From: Escherichia phage vB_EcoM_VR20 | Direction: 5' to 3' (one strand) | Sequence record: NC_028894.1 | Length of the DNA: 64,000 bases | Part shown: positions 4,862 through 59,601 of the stretch, piece by piece | How the letters are laid out: every line of letters begins with the position of its first letter | Position numbering within the stretch: the first letter of the stretch is position 1 | Program-made: the position numbers and the translations under genes | The notes under the pieces: generated by a model | Databases searched by the model: none | What the model was told of the DNA's origin: nothing | The model's input: only the letters and a program-made list of their open reading frames with translations

Positions 4862-4880
4862 CAAAAAGGCCCGAAGGCCT
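4862..4880 (-). terminator. stem-loop terminator, AGGCC-UUCG-GGCCU plus U-run
   Basis: Hairpin with UUCG loop and T-run overlapping the stop of the lipoprotein gene. Confidence 0.55.
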
Positions 4881-5140
4881 TATTCAAATCGAATGGTTGA
4901 ATTCTTGAACAACAATCCAGAACAAACAGTTCCTTTGACCTGTTTACCGGTCGGACCCACTGCTGTAAAACCAGTACGTTGGAAGTCATCTTCAGAACAC
5001 CCAAACAAACTATACCCAGTGATTTGGATTTGCTCAAAACCATTGGCATTCAAAACCTTAGTAGCATTATCGGCGTCAGTGCACCCGACCAGAGAAACGG
5101 CAAGAACCAGTGCAGCAATAGAACGATTTACGTATTTCAT
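4880..5140 (-). CDS. putative lipoprotein
   Basis: 86-aa ORF with signal peptide ending in lipobox-like LVGC. Confidence 0.5.
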   Translation of the reverse strand: MKYVNRSIAALVLAVSLVGCTDADNATKVLNANGFEQIQITGYSLFGCSEDDFQRTGFTAVGPTGKQVKGTVCSGLLFKNSTIRFE

Positions 5141-14156: not shown

Positions 14157-14182
14157 AGCAAAAAGGGAACCCGAAGGTTCCC
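14157..14182 (-). terminator. stem-loop terminator, GGGAACC-UUCG-GGUUCCC plus U-run
   Basis: Perfect 7-bp stem, UUCG loop and T-run just after the soc stop. Confidence 0.6.
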
Positions 14183-14187
14183 TATAA

Positions 14188-19726: not shown

Positions 19727-19747
19727 TAAAAAAGGACCCGAAGGTCC
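19727..19747 (-). terminator. stem-loop terminator, GGACC-UUCG-GGUCC plus U-run
   Basis: Hairpin with UUCG loop immediately after the gene 41 stop. Confidence 0.6.
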
Positions 19748-19750
19748 TTG

Positions 19751-26662: not shown

Positions 26663-26681
26663 CAAAAGGGACCGAAGTCCC
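26663..26681 (-). terminator. stem-loop, GGGAC-UUCG-GUCCC plus short U-run
   Basis: Hairpin after the stop of the 26688..26915 gene. Confidence 0.45.
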
Positions 26682-26687
26682 TTTGCT

Positions 26688-27274: not shown

Positions 27275-27853
27275 TTACCATTCCAATATTTGTTTTTTAA
27301 TTTCTTTTTGTTCTTTCACATTACTGGTAACGGTCTTTAAGAATTCATCCGTTACCAGACCTTTTGTCTTTTTCAAAACATCTTTAAGACTACCTTTGAC
27401 TTTCAATGTTTCCATATACATCAAAGCATCATCTGCATTAATTGTATAATATTTCATTAAAAGCTTGAGCACAAGCTGGACGTTGACTACATCCGGTTCA
27501 GCCTTGGCCCATTTGCCATAACGCTTGCCTTGTGGAACTGCATGCAGCAAATAATTATAATGCTGCTGGTCTGTTAACCCGGAACCGATTAAGTTCATCA
27601 CGTTCACCTGCATGATGCAATCAACATGTTGACTCAATGCGTTATCCAGCCAGAATTTATTGTAGTTTTCCGATTGAATCAGGTTCCGGGGTTTTTTGCT
27701 AACGGTTATGTCGTTAAGAATCGCGAACAATTCATTTTCTGCTTTCTCTTTGTATGAATCGGACAATTCCTGAATTTTGTTAAAGTCGCGTGATTTCCAC
27801 GCAACCTCATGTTCGTTTAATTGAACGTCATCATCAAAGAGACTTACAGCCAT
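27275..27853 (-). CDS. 62: clamp loader small subunit
   Basis: 192 aa; position between regA and 44. Confidence 0.7.
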   Translation of the reverse strand: MAVSLFDDDVQLNEHEVAWKSRDFNKIQELSDSYKEKAENELFAILNDITVSKKPRNLIQSENYNKFWLDNALSQHVDCIMQVNVMNLIGSGLTDQQHYNYLLHAVPQGKRYGKWAKAEPDVVNVQLVLKLLMKYYTINADDALMYMETLKVKGSLKDVLKKTKGLVTDEFLKTVTSNVKEQKEIKKQILEW

Positions 27854-28836
27854 TTCATTTCCCCAGCCAGTTGAGCAAACAGATAAGTCAGGTGAACTTC
27901 GGTATTGGCCGCAATGCCATGGTACTGATTATTCTCACCCACAATCTCATACATGCGGATGATACTTGCACCAGTCAGTTTGCCATACATTTCATCAGCC
28001 AGCTTTGCAATGAAGCTTGAATAATCATTTGCATGCTTAGGAGCCAGACCACGGAGAACTTTAAAGTTACGGTCCTTAAGGGCATCAATCACATCATCAA
28101 TTGGCGTGCGATTATTTGTCACGATACTTAAGATACCAGAATCGATAACACCCTTTGCAGAGTAACGGTCAAGCTCGTTAATTGTCTTACGCAGGTCCGG
28201 GAAGTTATGCTTAACCAGAGCAGCAACAACTTTCAGGTCTTCGATTTCAACGCCTTCGTTTTTACATACCGCAACTGCACGATGAATCATCTCTTTCATC
28301 ATGGTAGTCTGGTCAGCCGGAGTTGCTTCACCGAACTTAATGACGCGACAACGAGACTGCAACGGAGTGATGATGCCATCGATATTGTTCGCGGTCATAA
28401 TGATTGAACAGTTGCTCGAATAAGCTTCCATAAAGCTACGGAGGTGCCGTTGTGATTCAGCCAGACCCGCACGGTCGAACTCATCGATAACGATTACCTT
28501 GCGGCGACCTTCGATTGATTTGGATGATGCAAAGCGAGTCAATTCATTACGCACAAAGTCAATTCGGCAATCGGAGCCGTTAACAAACAGCATATCAGAA
28601 TTCGTATCTGCGCACATAGCTTTTGCAACTGTTGTCTTACCAGTACCAGGGGAACTACTGACCAGAATCAAGTTAGGAATCAAACCTTTTTTAACAATCG
28701 CCTCTAATGTTTCTTTATCATGAGCCGGGAGAATACACTCTGATAATGTACCTGGGCGGTATTTTTGTTCCCACATGAAGTCGGATTCGTTGACTGTTAG
28801 ACCGTTAATTACTGTTGCCATTATTATTTTCCTCAT
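27844..28836 (-). CDS. 44: clamp loader large subunit (AAA+ ATPase)
   Basis: 330 aa; Walker A SPGTGKTT; Walker B VIVIDEFD. Confidence 0.85.
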   Translation of the reverse strand: MRKIIMATVINGLTVNESDFMWEQKYRPGTLSECILPAHDKETLEAIVKKGLIPNLILVSSSPGTGKTTVAKAMCADTNSDMLFVNGSDCRIDFVRNELTRFASSKSIEGRRKVIVIDEFDRAGLAESQRHLRSFMEAYSSNCSIIMTANNIDGIITPLQSRCRVIKFGEATPADQTTMMKEMIHRAVAVCKNEGVEIEDLKVVAALVKHNFPDLRKTINELDRYSAKGVIDSGILSIVTNNRTPIDDVIDALKDRNFKVLRGLAPKHANDYSSFIAKLADEMYGKLTGASIIRMYEIVGENNQYHGIAANTEVHLTYLFAQLAGEMKWL

Positions 28837-29383
28837 TAAATTTTTTAACTATTTTATTCAATTCATTGGCTGAATAATTATACCCATAGTTCCGCAAAAG
28901 CGTACTGAACTTACCGCGCTTTGGTTTATCCAGCTCTATCCAAATTTTTAACAGTTCATCATAGTGATTCCAAACTTCAGAACGCTGCCATAACGAACAA
29001 TTCAATTTATGTGTTTTACTAAATGTTCGAGATACACCAGTACGTGATTCAGACATTTGTCTACGAGTTTCTTCTGTATGAAAATCAACTCCACCATTAC
29101 CGCCTGGATGAACATTAACACATTTATTTCCATATTCAATAAGACCTTTGGTAACAATCAAAGATTCATAGTGTTTAGCTTCTTTGAAAGTTTTTACTTC
29201 TTTAATAATTTTTGTATCGAATAACCAAAGTCCAGGAGTTAAATCATTTTCTTTTCGACAAGCTTTAATAAACGTTCCACTGCCGTGATATTCTTCACCG
29301 GTCAAACGATGTCTACCAAAATAATGATAAACATCGTTTGATGCAGTATTTGTTATTTTTGTATGATAACAAATGTATGACAT
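28805..29383 (-). mobile_element. GIY-YIG family homing endonuclease-like gene (Seg-like) inserted between 44 and 45
   Basis: Start trimmed to MSYICYHTKI after a GGAG site; YICYHTKITNTASNDVYHYFGRH GIY-YIG-like N-terminus; HTEETRRQMSESRTG matches the conserved Seg-type core. Confidence 0.55.
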
Positions 29384-29393
29384 TTTATTCTCC

Positions 29394-29411
29394 ATGGGGC
29401 CGAAGCCCCAT
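29394..29411 (-). terminator. stem-loop, AUGGGGC-UUCG-GCCCCAU, after gene 45
   Basis: Perfect 7-bp stem with UUCG tetraloop between the gene 45 stop and the endonuclease ribosome-binding site; no long U-run, so could instead be a stability or processing hairpin. Confidence 0.45.
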
Positions 29412-29414
29412 TTA

Positions 29415-30110
29415 TTAATCTTGGAATTCGTGGCTAGAGCCTTGTTCCATTGCAATCACATAGCTTGCTTGTGTGCCTTCAAACTTCGTAGCAAATTTAT
29501 CATCTTTCGCCCAAAGCATAACACGGTAATCAGCCGGAATCATTTTCATGTTCAGTTTGTTAATGATAAATTTAAACGCTGCATCGCCTTCGTAATCGCC
29601 ACACACCAGGGAATACAATGGGCGCGCTAATTCTTTATCTTCGAGCTGGTTATAACCATGGATAACAATCTTACCGTCTTTGTTGGTGATTGCAAAAGTA
29701 TCCAGAGACAAACCGCCAGCCACACGCAGAAGCTGCTGCAGGTCACTACCTTTCAGGTCGAAGATAACCTTAGCTACCGGGAAAGGAATCTTCTTAGCAG
29801 GGAACACGATAGTGCTCGGGTCAGCTGCAGGCCAGTGAATCGTTGAACGTTGGTCTTTGATAATGATGTTCGATGCATCTTCAGCCAGAGATACTTCAGC
29901 TTGGTCAGTTACCAGGCCCAGGATACTTAAGAAGCCGTTCAGGTCATAAATTGCAGCTTCAAAGTCAATTGTATCATTGATTTCAGATTCACCATATGAC
30001 GCTCCAGTTACGGAACGAGTCAGGATAGTATTACCTGGTTTAAGCATAATGCCAGAGTAGATGGAGGTGAAGTTTTTCAGAACGGCGATAGTGTCTTTAG
30101 AGAATTTCAT
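29415..30110 (-). CDS. 45: sliding clamp
   Basis: 231 aa; MKFSKDT...LLKNF N-terminus and FWPAADPST, LLLWAK regions resemble T4 gp45. Confidence 0.85.
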   Translation of the reverse strand: MKFSKDTIAVLKNFTSIYSGIMLKPGNTILTRSVTGASYGESEINDTIDFEAAIYDLNGFLSILGLVTDQAEVSLAEDASNIIIKDQRSTIHWPAADPSTIVFPAKKIPFPVAKVIFDLKGSDLQQLLRVAGGLSLDTFAITNKDGKIVIHGYNQLEDKELARPLYSLVCGDYEGDAAFKFIINKLNMKMIPADYRVMLWAKDDKFATKFEGTQASYVIAMEQGSSHEFQD

Positions 30111-48360: not shown

Positions 48361-48385
48361 ATAAAAAAGGACCCCGAAGGGTCCT
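48361..48385 (-). terminator. stem-loop terminator, AGGACCC-UUCG-GGGUCCU plus U-run
   Basis: Hairpin with UUCG loop and T-run after the stop of the 48392..49432 gene. Confidence 0.6.
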
Positions 48386-48391
48386 TAGAAT

Positions 48392-49432
48392 TTAACGATA
48401 ATAGGAATTGTGGTTGTCAAGATATACCTCTTCAACAAACTTGTCCCAGAACTTCATGTCTACCTTATCAGGCATACCATTCTTAGCGGCCCAGATGGCA
48501 TTAGTTTCGACTTCATCAATGATAGCTTCAAGTTCGGCCTGTACATCTTTAAAAGCATGAAGCCCTTGTTTGATTTCAAGGATAAATGGTGCTGTACGTA
48601 AAGGATATTGGAGGTCACCAGTTTGATAGATTTCCTTCAACTGGTATCCAGCACGATAAGCATGGCTCAGAGCTTTCCAGTCAATACCTTCATTGGCTTC
48701 TGCCTTACGAGCACGTTCACCATATTCGGCATCGAGTTTATTCAGAGATTGCTTGAGCTCGATTAAAGACAAGGTGGTTTGGTACTTACGTCCAAGAACA
48801 GTATAGAACGTTTGAGGGCCTGTTTTCTCGTGGTTATGGAATACCCATTCACAGAACTCATTTTCAGGGAGTCGATGTTTGATATCTTCTACCTTAGTGC
48901 GACGTTGCTTAGTCGAACCATCTTCTTGATAGTCGACCCACTGTTCAGGAATCTGGTTAACGATTGCCAGTACACCACGTAGAGCGGCCAATCGAGAACC
49001 TTTAACACCATACTTAGAAGCTTGCTTGCGGACATAACCCAAATAGGCTTTCATGTTAGTTGTATAGAACCGTGAACGGTTATCCTGGATAAACTTCCAT
49101 ACATCTGGTAAATCGGATTTGACAACCAGGTCAGCCGGGGTGTGAATCATATCCAGGGCAACGGTTTCGCCTTCGGCCGCCAGTTTAAAGAAATATTTCA
49201 GACTATAAAGTTCATGGTCAACATCATCTTTTGTATTTTTGGTAGCCGTGTTATTCGTGTTCAGGTTGGTATGGTTCATCGCCGTCCCAAGTAGAATATC
49301 ACGAGGATGTGGAACAAAGATTTCTTTAAAATCGACATCAGATTCTGGGGTACTTGTTCCATAAAGGTGGCTACCGAAGTAGCCTTTCATAACTGTTCTC
49401 ATTTTTTGTCCTCGAAGTGGATTACAGGACAC
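48392..49432 (-). CDS. predicted nucleotidyltransferase (Pol-beta-like fold)
   Basis: 346 aa; N-terminal GSHLYGTSTPESDVDF fits the GS-x(9-13)-DxD nucleotidyltransferase signature. Confidence 0.5.
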   Translation of the reverse strand: MSCNPLRGQKMRTVMKGYFGSHLYGTSTPESDVDFKEIFVPHPRDILLGTAMNHTNLNTNNTATKNTKDDVDHELYSLKYFFKLAAEGETVALDMIHTPADLVVKSDLPDVWKFIQDNRSRFYTTNMKAYLGYVRKQASKYGVKGSRLAALRGVLAIVNQIPEQWVDYQEDGSTKQRRTKVEDIKHRLPENEFCEWVFHNHEKTGPQTFYTVLGRKYQTTLSLIELKQSLNKLDAEYGERARKAEANEGIDWKALSHAYRAGYQLKEIYQTGDLQYPLRTAPFILEIKQGLHAFKDVQAELEAIIDEVETNAIWAAKNGMPDKVDMKFWDKFVEEVYLDNHNSYYR

Positions 49433-57206: not shown

Positions 57207-57366
57207 AGTTGTCTCTTAGTTGTGGGGCCATTCCTTGGCACATAATTCGTCCATGTATCCGTATGTAAACCCTTTACCGCACTTGGGCTCGACCTTATTA
57301 CAGGTAGGGAAAGGCCCATCACTCAGAGGACGCGACGTTCATGAGGAGAGGGTCGGCTTGCCTTTA
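57207..57366. other. unusually G+C-rich 160-bp intergenic region, possible structured RNA or regulatory element
   Basis: No convincing ORF; central stretch roughly 55-60% G+C by hand count in an AT-rich genome; plus-strand ORF 57220..57417 judged spurious. Confidence 0.3.
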
Positions 57367-57666
57367 TTAGAAAGAACCAGAGCCTTTAATTGTGTTCTGG
57401 CGACCTTTATTTTCTAATTCAGAATGGTCAATTTCATATGCTTGTGCTACGCCAAAGGCCTTTTTAACTTTAGCTAAAGAACCTTTAGATGTAACAATAT
57501 TAAAAGTATTACCTTTAGTAAAATCAACCAAATCCACTTGTACACCTTGTTTACCGAGGCTTGCGACAATAGCATCAACATATTGTTGGTCTAAATTGCC
57601 CTGGACTCCGATTTGAAATGCTTTAGGAGCTTTAGCTTCTGTGATAAATTCTTGATAAGTTTTCAT
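57367..57666 (-). CDS. internal-protein-like gene 1 with capsid-targeting sequence
   Basis: 99 aa beginning MKTYQEFITEAK, matching the conserved N-terminal targeting and prohead-protease cleavage sequence of T4 internal proteins. Confidence 0.6.
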   Translation of the reverse strand: MKTYQEFITEAKAPKAFQIGVQGNLDQQYVDAIVASLGKQGVQVDLVDFTKGNTFNIVTSKGSLAKVKKAFGVAQAYEIDHSELENKGRQNTIKGSGSF

Positions 57667-57722
57667 TTATTCTCTCCAAGTTGATGGGATAATTATGCAC
57701 TATCCCATCAAAAAGTAAACAG

Positions 57723-57986
57723 TTATGCTTTACCGCCAGAAACAATACCAAAGGTCTCAAAGTCCCATTCAATATCGTCAACATCAACTTTCTTACCAGC
57801 AACCACGAATGCGATTTCGCGACGTTTTGCATAGGTGACAATTTCTTTACCATCACCGCCAAAGAAAGAATAACCATTGCGCTTCATGGTGCCAAAGTCT
57901 TCAGCATCACCAGCAAACGCGCGGACTTTAAAGGAACCAGCAGGAGCTTTAGCAGATTCAGTAATAAATTCTTGATAAGTTTTCAT
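57723..57986 (-). CDS. internal-protein-like gene 2 with capsid-targeting sequence
   Basis: 87 aa beginning MKTYQEFITESAK. Confidence 0.6.
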   Translation of the reverse strand: MKTYQEFITESAKAPAGSFKVRAFAGDAEDFGTMKRNGYSFFGGDGKEIVTYAKRREIAFVVAGKKVDVDDIEWDFETFGIVSGGKA

Positions 57987-57999
57987 AATGTCTCTTTAA

Positions 58000-58314
58000 T
58001 TAAGCTTTAGGGAAATCGCGCAAAAACGCATCATAAAGTTTATTACCAATACGACGGAATGCTTTTGCTGCATGAACGTTATCCGGGTTTGCAATTTTAA
58101 TCTGCATTACATGACTACCCGCCCATGATTTAGCTTCGTCATAATAACCTTTAATTTCTTTAATAGTCTTGCGTTTGCCGCCAGGACCATCAACAGTAAT
58201 TTTCCACGAACCCGTGCTTGTTTCACTTGGTGGGGTTAATTGTTCAATCCAGACATAACCGCCTTCAACACGTTTTTGGGTGGATTCAGTAATAAATTCT
58301 TGATAAGTTTTCAT
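58000..58314 (-). CDS. internal-protein-like gene 3 with capsid-targeting sequence (start trimmed to MKTYQEFITE)
   Basis: Track ORF 58000..58353 contains MKTYQEFITEST at residue 14; trimmed to that Met. Confidence 0.55.
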   Translation of the reverse strand: MKTYQEFITESTQKRVEGGYVWIEQLTPPSETSTGSWKITVDGPGGKRKTIKEIKGYYDEAKSWAGSHVMQIKIANPDNVHAAKAFRRIGNKLYDAFLRDFPKA

Positions 58315-58362
58315 TTTATATTCCATTGTTTGGTTGATAAAATCATTATACAACCTTTTTAG

Positions 58363-58805: not shown

Positions 58806-58838
58806 ATAATAATACATCAATACGAGGAGGTTGTAAAC
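58806..58838 (-). promoter_or_regulatory. sigma70-type early promoter, -35 GTTTACA, 17-bp spacer, -10 TATTAT, TATCCCATCAACTACTTGGAGGA leader
   Basis: Minus-strand motif upstream of denV, overlapping the 3' end of the internal-protein-like gene 4. Confidence 0.5.
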
Positions 58839-59120
58839 TTATTTTGTGGAAGCAGCCGAGATATATTTTTCAAGACGCTGTTTCATCAGCGAGCCGTTCT
58901 TAGCGATTTCTTCCGGTTTATCGCACATACGCAATAGAGCTTCAAGCTTAGTGATATCAGATGTCCGCTCAAATTTGCGAGTATCTACCTTACTAGCAAG
59001 TTCGGAAATACGCGCTAACAGACTTTCGGCTTCTACCAAAGCTGTGCCCAGCTTAGTTGCAAATGTGTCAGTAGCTTCATTAAGAGTGGTCACGGTCAAA
59101 AATTCATTATAGGTTTTCAT
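58839..59120 (-). CDS. internal-protein-like gene 4 with divergent capsid-targeting sequence
   Basis: 93 aa beginning [15 protein letters not shown]; between e and denV where T4 carries ipIII and ipII. Confidence 0.55.
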
Positions 59121-59601
59121 ATGCTTTCCAAGTTCCTGTTTTAAATGTTGAGATTACACGTTTCGCTCGATTAGGTGTTTGTTTGTACCATTTGGATTGA
59201 GCCAGGTTAACAGCAGCTTCGTCCCAACGTTTCTGTTGAAGCAACCGAAGGGAGTTAGTAAACCCAGCAACGCCGGCTTCACCCATTTGGAAGACCATAT
59301 TAATCAGGGCACAGCGACGAACTTCGTCAAGACTATCATACACTGGTTTTAATTTAGCATTACGCATAACACTCGCACGTGCTTTTTCCACTGAACGGTT
59401 AAACAAGGTTTCAGCTTCAACCTGGGTTATGCGACCATTGCAGACGCGACCCATGAGCTTGTCGAGCTCGGCACGAGCAACATCTTTAGACGGGTTCTTA
59501 GTTATCAGTTGCCCGATACCGATGGTCCAAAAGCCTTCGGTATCTTTATACAAATCCAACTTACAACCTTCATCTATGCGTAACATTTCGAATATATTCA
59601 T
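59107..59601 (-). CDS. e: lysozyme (endolysin)
   Basis: 164 aa; [12 protein letters not shown]...[16 protein letters not shown] matches T4 lysozyme with catalytic Glu/Asp/Thr context. Confidence 0.9.

Follow-up and report, generated by a model that had tools for sequence, protein, structure and literature searches.

The 64,000-nucleotide stretch of Escherichia phage vB_EcoM_VR20 that we analyzed (NC_028894.1; referred to below as the window) belongs to the Gaprivervirus type (SP18/VR7 group), with 97-98% nucleotide identity to TH41, UPEC01 and SP18 in megablast alignments. Its replication genes are arranged as in T4 with one addition, giving the order 43-regA-62-44-[ORF]-45-rpbA-45.2-46-47; in T4 itself, no gene intervenes at the 44/45 junction. 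The additional open reading frame (ORF), which we call seg, occupies positions 28805-29383 on the minus strand (all coordinates are given on the plus strand), comprises 192 codons and is flanked by gene 45, encoding the sliding clamp, and gene 44, encoding the clamp loader. A first reading made from the sequence alone had proposed that this ORF, starting with MSYICYHTKI after a GGAG site, is a GIY-YIG homing-endonuclease-like gene with a core typical of T4 Seg enzymes, inserted between the two replication genes. The ORF is present as described, with its ATG at 29383 and a product of 192 amino acids, and the coordinates of the flanking genes bear out its position. A mechanically called, longer version that begins at a TTG (28805-29455) was rejected as too long, the homologues all starting at the ATG equivalent to 29383. 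At its other end, the final 17 nt of seg are overlapped by the start of gene 44, whose ribosome site GAGG (28830-28833) and ATG are embedded in the 3' end of the ORF. Based on the comparisons described below, we consider that seg is very probably a T4 Seg-type gene for a freestanding homing endonuclease with a GIY-YIG nuclease domain, a reading to which we assign a probability of about 80%.

The borders of the inserted DNA are sharp. When the region from gene 62 through gene 44 and the ORF to gene 45 was used as a megablast query, the best record covered no more than 77% of it, and the uncovered part was exactly the ORF. Homology to SP18 and TH41 ends at 28836 and restarts at 29384, as indicated by BLAST break-points and by an alignment with SP18, TH41 and VR26; against UPEC01, the break-points are 28836 and 29390. 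Across 50 kb of the window this is the sole endonuclease-sized insertion relative to UPEC01.

Contrary to what would be expected of a gene fixed in its lineage, seg is found at the junction in few relatives. The phage collection includes 27 distinct Gaprivervirus genomes, all of which lack it. Four other sequences carry the gene: besides the window itself, these are the Logan contigs L013 and L014, with 99% protein identity, and an ENA contig, L020 (ERZ27239191 contig k141_2753436, positions 93-671), which has a Gaprivervirus backbone. In Dhakavirus, homologues with 59-65% amino acid identity lie at the same 45/44 junction in 6 of about 37 genomes (Bp7, PSD2002, MX01, SHP1 and LQ5, together with a deleted form in vB_EcoM_005), and the junction is empty in about 31 others. 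A word-index protein search returned 3 clusters only, and scans of the IMG/VR and JGI metagenomes added one known genome and one distant match. The seg DNA of L020 is 81-89% identical to that of the window, with flanks 97-98% identical, indicating that at least two old seg alleles circulate in near-identical backbones. Conversely, L013 and L014 match the window copy of seg at 98-100% identity, and other segments of their backbones at only 82-92%. Given these opposite patterns, the history of seg appears decoupled from that of its flanks, and both patterns fit repeated transfer between genomes. The distribution is thus sporadic, crosses genera and is confined to one junction, where a flank segment travels with the gene; the element is real and probably mobile, and of a kind ordinary for T4-like phages.

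The family assignment is carried by profile and structure comparisons. The protein matches PHROG 314, annotated 'homing endonuclease', at 2.7e-16, and T4 SegA matches the same PHROG in the same profile region at 2.9e-43. A search with tblastn identified a homologue annotated 'SegA' in VR26, for which the pairwise BLASTP E value was 7e-15 with an alignment reaching through the C-terminal domain; this VR26 protein passes the Pfam model SegE_GIY-YIG. An 'intron-associated endonuclease' of a Karamvirus was matched by BLASTP at E 1e-18. When 1.84 billion representatives were searched exhaustively with the profile, 202 proteins were recovered at E<=1e-3, of which 81 make up the family alignment and the domain counts derived from it: 22 of these relatives match GIY-YIG, 28 match SegE_GIY-YIG and 50 match NUMOD3. 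The family profile aligned with T4 SegA over the full length in hhalign, with a probability of 99.9% and an E value of 4.3e-37, which together with the PHROG 314 match supports the Seg-type interpretation. With the 81-sequence alignment as input, AlphaFold2 gave a mean predicted local distance difference test score (pLDDT) of 90.7; an earlier run on a 4-sequence alignment reached a pLDDT of 58 and was not used. A Foldseek search against viral models (BFVD) returned 110 matches, nearly all annotated as Seg or GIY-YIG endonucleases, the top one being the MX01 homologue (UniProt A0A172Q1W5), which is already named 'Homing endonuclease'.

Several results count against this assignment. The Pfam GIY-YIG model (PF01541) gave no match to the 192-aa protein at E<=1, a scan of NCBIfam gave no match either, and the sole Pfam signal was NUMOD3 at 16.5 bits, under its cut-off of 20.4. 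The same PF01541 model scores 37.4 bits for T4 SegA and 22.0 bits for the VR26 SegA-like protein, just below the cut-off of 22.6; since the latter also falls short, PF01541 is evidently insensitive to this branch. Foldseek found no match in the PDB, phmmer against PDB sequences returned noise only, and the family profile retrieved from the PDB only I-TevI at E 0.51. The profile comparison to I-TevI alone was likewise weak (E 0.003 with a probability of 10% in hhalign), and in this alignment the I-TevI segment containing R27 lies opposite a gap, so that the equivalent of R27 is unplaced. A GIY-YIG profile match, named in the sequence-only reading as its check, is thus missing in the simplest form of the test (direct searches of Pfam and NCBIfam) and present in the more sensitive ones (PHROG 314, the domains of the relatives and the SegA profile comparison), and overall the reading is supported. 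In keeping with this, the curated Pfam and NCBIfam models miss the gene, and most records label its homologues 'hypothetical' or 'unknown'. The absence of any curated match above threshold would also be consistent with a chance reading frame in an AT-rich spacer; this explanation is refuted by the strong purifying selection among homologues, the confident fold prediction and the hundreds of relatives, and we regard its probability as negligible.

The predicted architecture consists of an N-terminal GIY-YIG nuclease, one NUMOD3 linker and a C-terminal helical DNA-binding domain (Table 1). In the nuclease domain, the family-invariant residues Y6, Y21-F-G23, R24, H25, Y32, G34-S35-G36, K40, E73, N90 and G94-G95 are kept, with near-invariant columns allowing K/R at positions 24 and 40. 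Of these, Y6, Y21-F22-G23, E73 and N90 fall in columns with a conservation of at least 97% across the 81 relatives and align with Y6, Y17-V-G19, E75 and N90 of I-TevI in both HMMER and hhalign. The Seg signature Y-x-G-x-H ... Y-x-G-S-G is present as YFGRH (21-25) and YHGSG (32-36). R24, H25 and R26, one of which might stand in for R27 of I-TevI, directly follow YFG, where Seg-type relatives conserve K/R24 and H25, and the predicted fold has the three-stranded antiparallel sheet packed on helices of GIY-YIG domains. The core HTEETRRQMSES, which had been singled out as typical of Seg endonucleases, corresponds to residues 102-113, and the C-terminal half matches helix-turn-helix and homeodomain DNA-binding domains.

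Table 1. Features of the 45/44 junction and of other sites in the window (plus-strand coordinates).
Feature	Position	Strand	Remarks
Gene 45 (sliding clamp)	29415..30110	-	flanking host gene
AUGGGGC-UUCG-GCCCCAU hairpin	29394..29411	-	perfect 7-bp stem, UUCG loop, 3 nt past the gene 45 stop
GGAG	29390..29393	-	6 nt upstream of the seg ATG; already there in empty alleles
seg-like ORF, 192 aa	28805..29383	-	ATG at 29383, TAA 28805-28807, N-terminus MSYICYHTKI
GIY-YIG catalytic domain, residues 1-98 (predicted)	29090..29383	-	family-invariant residues all present
NUMOD3-type linker / minor-groove motif, residues 101-116 (FHTEETRRQMSESRTG)	29036..29083	-	sub-threshold in Pfam (16.5 bits); 50/81 relatives match NUMOD3
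Helical C-terminal domain, residues 123-189	28817..29017	-	predicted DNA-binding (helix-turn-helix / homeodomain-like), common to T4 SegA
Extra DNA relative to endonuclease-free relatives	28837..29383	-	547 bp replacing 12 bp of the 45-44 spacer
Long patch: spacer AATA and the first 14 codons of gene 44 (MATVINGLTVNESD)	28780..28825	-	most relatives have the MLTVNDKE form, shorter by 6 codons
Gene 44 (clamp loader)	27844..28821	-	flanking host gene; ATG 28821 as annotated in SP18
UUCG hairpins	2768-2785, 4866-4881, 14164-14183, 19732-19749, 26665-26684, 29394-29411, 48367-48386, 49369-49384	-	
Small ORFs starting MKTYQEFITE or MKTYNEFL	57367-57666, 57723-57986, 58000-58353, 58839-59120		

The ratio of nonsynonymous to synonymous substitution rates (dN/dS), calculated by the Nei-Gojobori method, was 0.064 relative to the metagenomic allele of L020, which has 90% protein identity (dS 0.81), and 0.12-0.22 relative to the Dhakavirus homologues. 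The values are low over the full length, nuclease domain included, indicating that the full-length, intact protein is maintained by purifying selection. Two homologues at the junction are damaged. In vB_EcoM_005 (L006 2004-3440; MK295203.1 105632-107068), an internal deletion fuses seg, cut short near codon 155, in frame to gene 44 from about codon 5 onward, removing the C-terminus of seg together with the ribosome site and start of gene 44, and the record shows a single 478-aa 'clamp loader'; if the assembly is right, an essential clamp-loader subunit would be made solely as a Seg-gp44 fusion. In a distant T4-like contig (L019 3860-4465, Logan SRR28261677), a 44%-identical homologue at the 45/44 junction has its frame broken near codon 7, with MYNCYHN in one frame and the remainder in another, which could be due to either a decaying copy or an assembly error. 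Both cases would suit a reading in which seg is a non-homing relic of the Seg family, either a decaying passenger or a gene co-opted as a regulator of the 45/44/62 operon or as an anti-competitor nuclease without self-propagation. The rarity of the element in public data points in the same direction, as does the ability of I-TevI to double as a repressor, mentioned with a citation in a passage of PMC10055350. We consider such a relic unlikely, given that the window copy is full length with all family-invariant residues kept, that dN/dS is low over the whole protein, and that a near-identical allele occurs in different backbones, arguing for recent spread.

The insertion is accompanied by a second polymorphism at the start of gene 44, which we refer to as the long patch. 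Short gene 44 starts read MLTVNDKEF in P479, VR7 and VR26, MLTVNNNEF in JS98, IME08 and ABTNLsp5, and MITVNEKE in T4. The sequence ahead of the short form is GAGGAAAAT-ATATG and that ahead of the long form is GAGGAAAAT-AATAATG; the long form, with six additional codons, reads MATVINGLTVNESDF in the window and MSKVVNGLTINENDF in Bp7, MX01 and SHP1. The long start in the window (28780-28821) also looks as if the short one had been imperfectly duplicated in tandem (ACAGTAATTAAC-GGT-CTAACAGTCAAC, encoding TVIN-G-LTVN), which might be a scar left when an old insertion was repaired. Past the patch of approximately 45 nt, the following 330 nt show 99.4% identity among P479 (short), SP18 (long) and the window, and the last 300 nt of gene 45 are 98-99% identical among the same three. 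A cluster of single-nucleotide polymorphisms or a co-conversion tract was sought in the flanks relative to SP18 and TH41, revealing 2-3 synonymous differences near the gene 44 start and nothing striking past the patch. By these alignments the patch is a sharply bounded cassette that accompanies seg yet also occurs alone.

The long form is found in every seg-containing allele, with the seg stop codon lying inside the patch. Within Dhakavirus it occurs in 6/6 genomes with seg vs 0/~31 without, and among the empty Gaprivervirus genomes 20 are short and 7 are long (SP18, 212, TH41, UPEC01, TH57, VR25 and P8). The association between patch and seg has a Fisher p value of 0.010 within Gaprivervirus and, calculated by hand as 1/C(37,6), of ~4e-7 within Dhakavirus; both statistics ignore shared ancestry, which weakens the case for a link. 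Gene 44 of L019 also has an extended start (MSDIKLTVDYDNF), so that the linkage is seen in three lineages. These comparisons indicate that the travelling element is seg together with the translation-initiation region and the first 14 codons of gene 44.

The Seg family is known for intronless homing with co-conversion of flanks, marker exclusion and cleavage that leaves 2-nt 3' overhangs (PMC2988022). By analogy with this family, in a mixed infection the enzyme would introduce a double-strand break into the seg-free genome near the 45/44 junction (PMC2988022), and recombination-dependent repair from the seg-containing genome would then copy seg and adjoining sequence into the broken one. The target may be the short gene 44 start region, with the long patch representing its uncuttable version, a proposal that we place at even odds or slightly below. 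Phages that are long and empty would then be conversion products without seg, or descendants of phages that lost it. Tentatively, and with the odds somewhat against it, the 45/44 junction could be a natural three-allele homing system, comprising a sensitive short-empty, a resistant long-empty and a seg-containing long allele. If this were the case, the target would overlap the translation-initiation region and first codons of the essential gene 44, immunity would come from a 6-codon in-frame extension of the clamp-loader N-terminus that also circulates alone, and the junction would neatly illustrate how a homing endonuclease can remodel the sequence of an essential replication protein.

Two considerations speak against a target at the gene 44 start. 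The cut sites of characterized Seg enzymes usually lie hundreds of bp from the gene that encodes the enzyme (PMC2988022); a target at the gene 44 start would be unusually close, and thus the site may lie elsewhere. Furthermore, the long patch could be mere co-converted donor flank with no role in immunity. It is also conceivable that the long gene 44 start is an old polymorphism next to which seg was inserted by illegitimate recombination, the real cleavage site lying in gene 45, gene 44 or rpbA at a distance of hundreds of bp. SegG, SegF and SegA cut at a distance from their own genes (PMC2988022), seven Gaprivervirus phages carry the long form without seg, and the patch reassorts with spacer variants, as P8 (long) and VR26 (short) have one spacer type. 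The restriction of the long form to seg carriers in Dhakavirus is not what an old polymorphism would predict; in addition, the divergence of the patch between Dhakavirus and Gaprivervirus is approximately that of seg, as if the two travelled together, and the third lineage, L019, again pairs a homologue with an extended gene 44 start. We therefore regard an old polymorphism as plausible, with the odds fairly clearly against it.

The hairpin that the sequence-only reading had placed between the ORF and gene 45 exists and is perfect, but it belongs to the native spacer rather than to the element. Hairpin and GGAG are base-for-base identical in SP18, TH41, VR26, P479 and VR7, all of which lack the ORF, and both are therefore native to the 45-44 spacer and lie outside the element. 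Eight perfect hairpins in the window have C(UUCG)G loops and stems of 6-8 bp, all on the transcribed strand; the expectation from shuffled windows is 0.04 TTCG hairpins when the stem is 7 bp or longer, indicating that the hairpin is not due to chance. The eight lie mostly in spacers and belong to the class of T4-type intercistronic UUCG hairpins, the one adjacent to seg among them. A terminator scan around seg found no U-run after the hairpin on the transcribed strand, and scans for promoter and terminator consensus sequences around seg performed no better than shuffles. Transcription of seg presumably occurs by read-through inside the 45->44->62->regA unit, and translation would start from the pre-existing GGAG beside the native UUCG hairpin, the position of which suggests a Shine-Dalgarno role. 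A structure in which the hairpin hides the seg ribosome site was considered and rejected: the minimum free energy fold pairs part of AUGGAG with an upstream UCCA, the centroid does not, and with a z value of only -1.85 the pairing is not robust.

Other extra genes are found nearby. The Gaprivervirus phages VR26 (L001 2251-2883; KP007362.1 30166-30798) and TH15 carry a different ORF of 210 aa, annotated 'putative DNA endonuclease', between gene 45 and rpbA; the VR26 ORF has no match in Pfam or PHROG. Judging from these gene arrangements, extra genes seem to have landed more than once in the 44-45-rpbA stretch. In the seg-carrying Dhakavirus phages Bp7 and MX01 (L004 1-565 and L005 1-566), an additional gene labelled 'putative homing endonuclease' lies immediately upstream of 45.2 on the other strand; vB_EcoM_005 and SHP1 lack it at this position. 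Elsewhere in the window, sizeable differences from UPEC01 are located at 57309-57722 and 58806-59254. The small ORFs listed for this region (Table 1) have starts that we take to resemble the capsid-targeting N-terminus of T4 internal head proteins, and the 57-59 kb ORFs look like a hypervariable internal-protein locus beside the lysozyme gene.

Freestanding homing endonucleases are the main drivers of localized gene conversion and marker exclusion between T4-like phages, and seg adds an uncharacterized lineage beside two essential replication genes. All three allele states appear to be represented among natural isolates, which makes the junction a convenient system rather than a surprising one; in other respects, it is what would be expected for this phage group. 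No published account of an endonuclease gene occupying the 44/45 junction was found in a literature search.

Compared with known systems, seg is closest to T4 SegA, with which it shares PHROG 314, the order of GIY-YIG, NUMOD3 and helical C-terminal domain, and a full-length alignment through the family profile. The two differ in that identity is ~31% over 75 residues of the catalytic domain, the protein has 192 aa vs 221 aa in SegA, there is a single NUMOD3 motif, and the insertion site is different. Like T4 SegA-SegG, seg stands free in the spacer separating two conserved genes, occurs only sporadically in close relatives and has a co-travelling flank (PMC2988022). I-TevI (PDB 1LN0), in contrast, is encoded by the T4 td intron and has a zinc finger in its linker, for which the window protein shows no equivalent, and sequence similarity to it is marginal. 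Bp7 EpBp7_0082 ('unknown'), MX01 ORF51, SHP1_107 and the genes of LQ5 and PSD2002 resemble seg in their junction, their overlap with gene 44 and the long gene 44 start. Unlike the window insert, which keeps the hairpin and GGAG, the Dhakavirus element takes the place of the entire 61-bp spacer, including the hairpin native to that lineage, and starts right at the stop codon of gene 45 (TAATG); because dS is saturated, transfer of seg between the window lineage and Dhakavirus was not recent. Taken together, the features compared here place seg within the Seg group, as a distinct, uncharacterized lineage at a junction where T4 has no gene.

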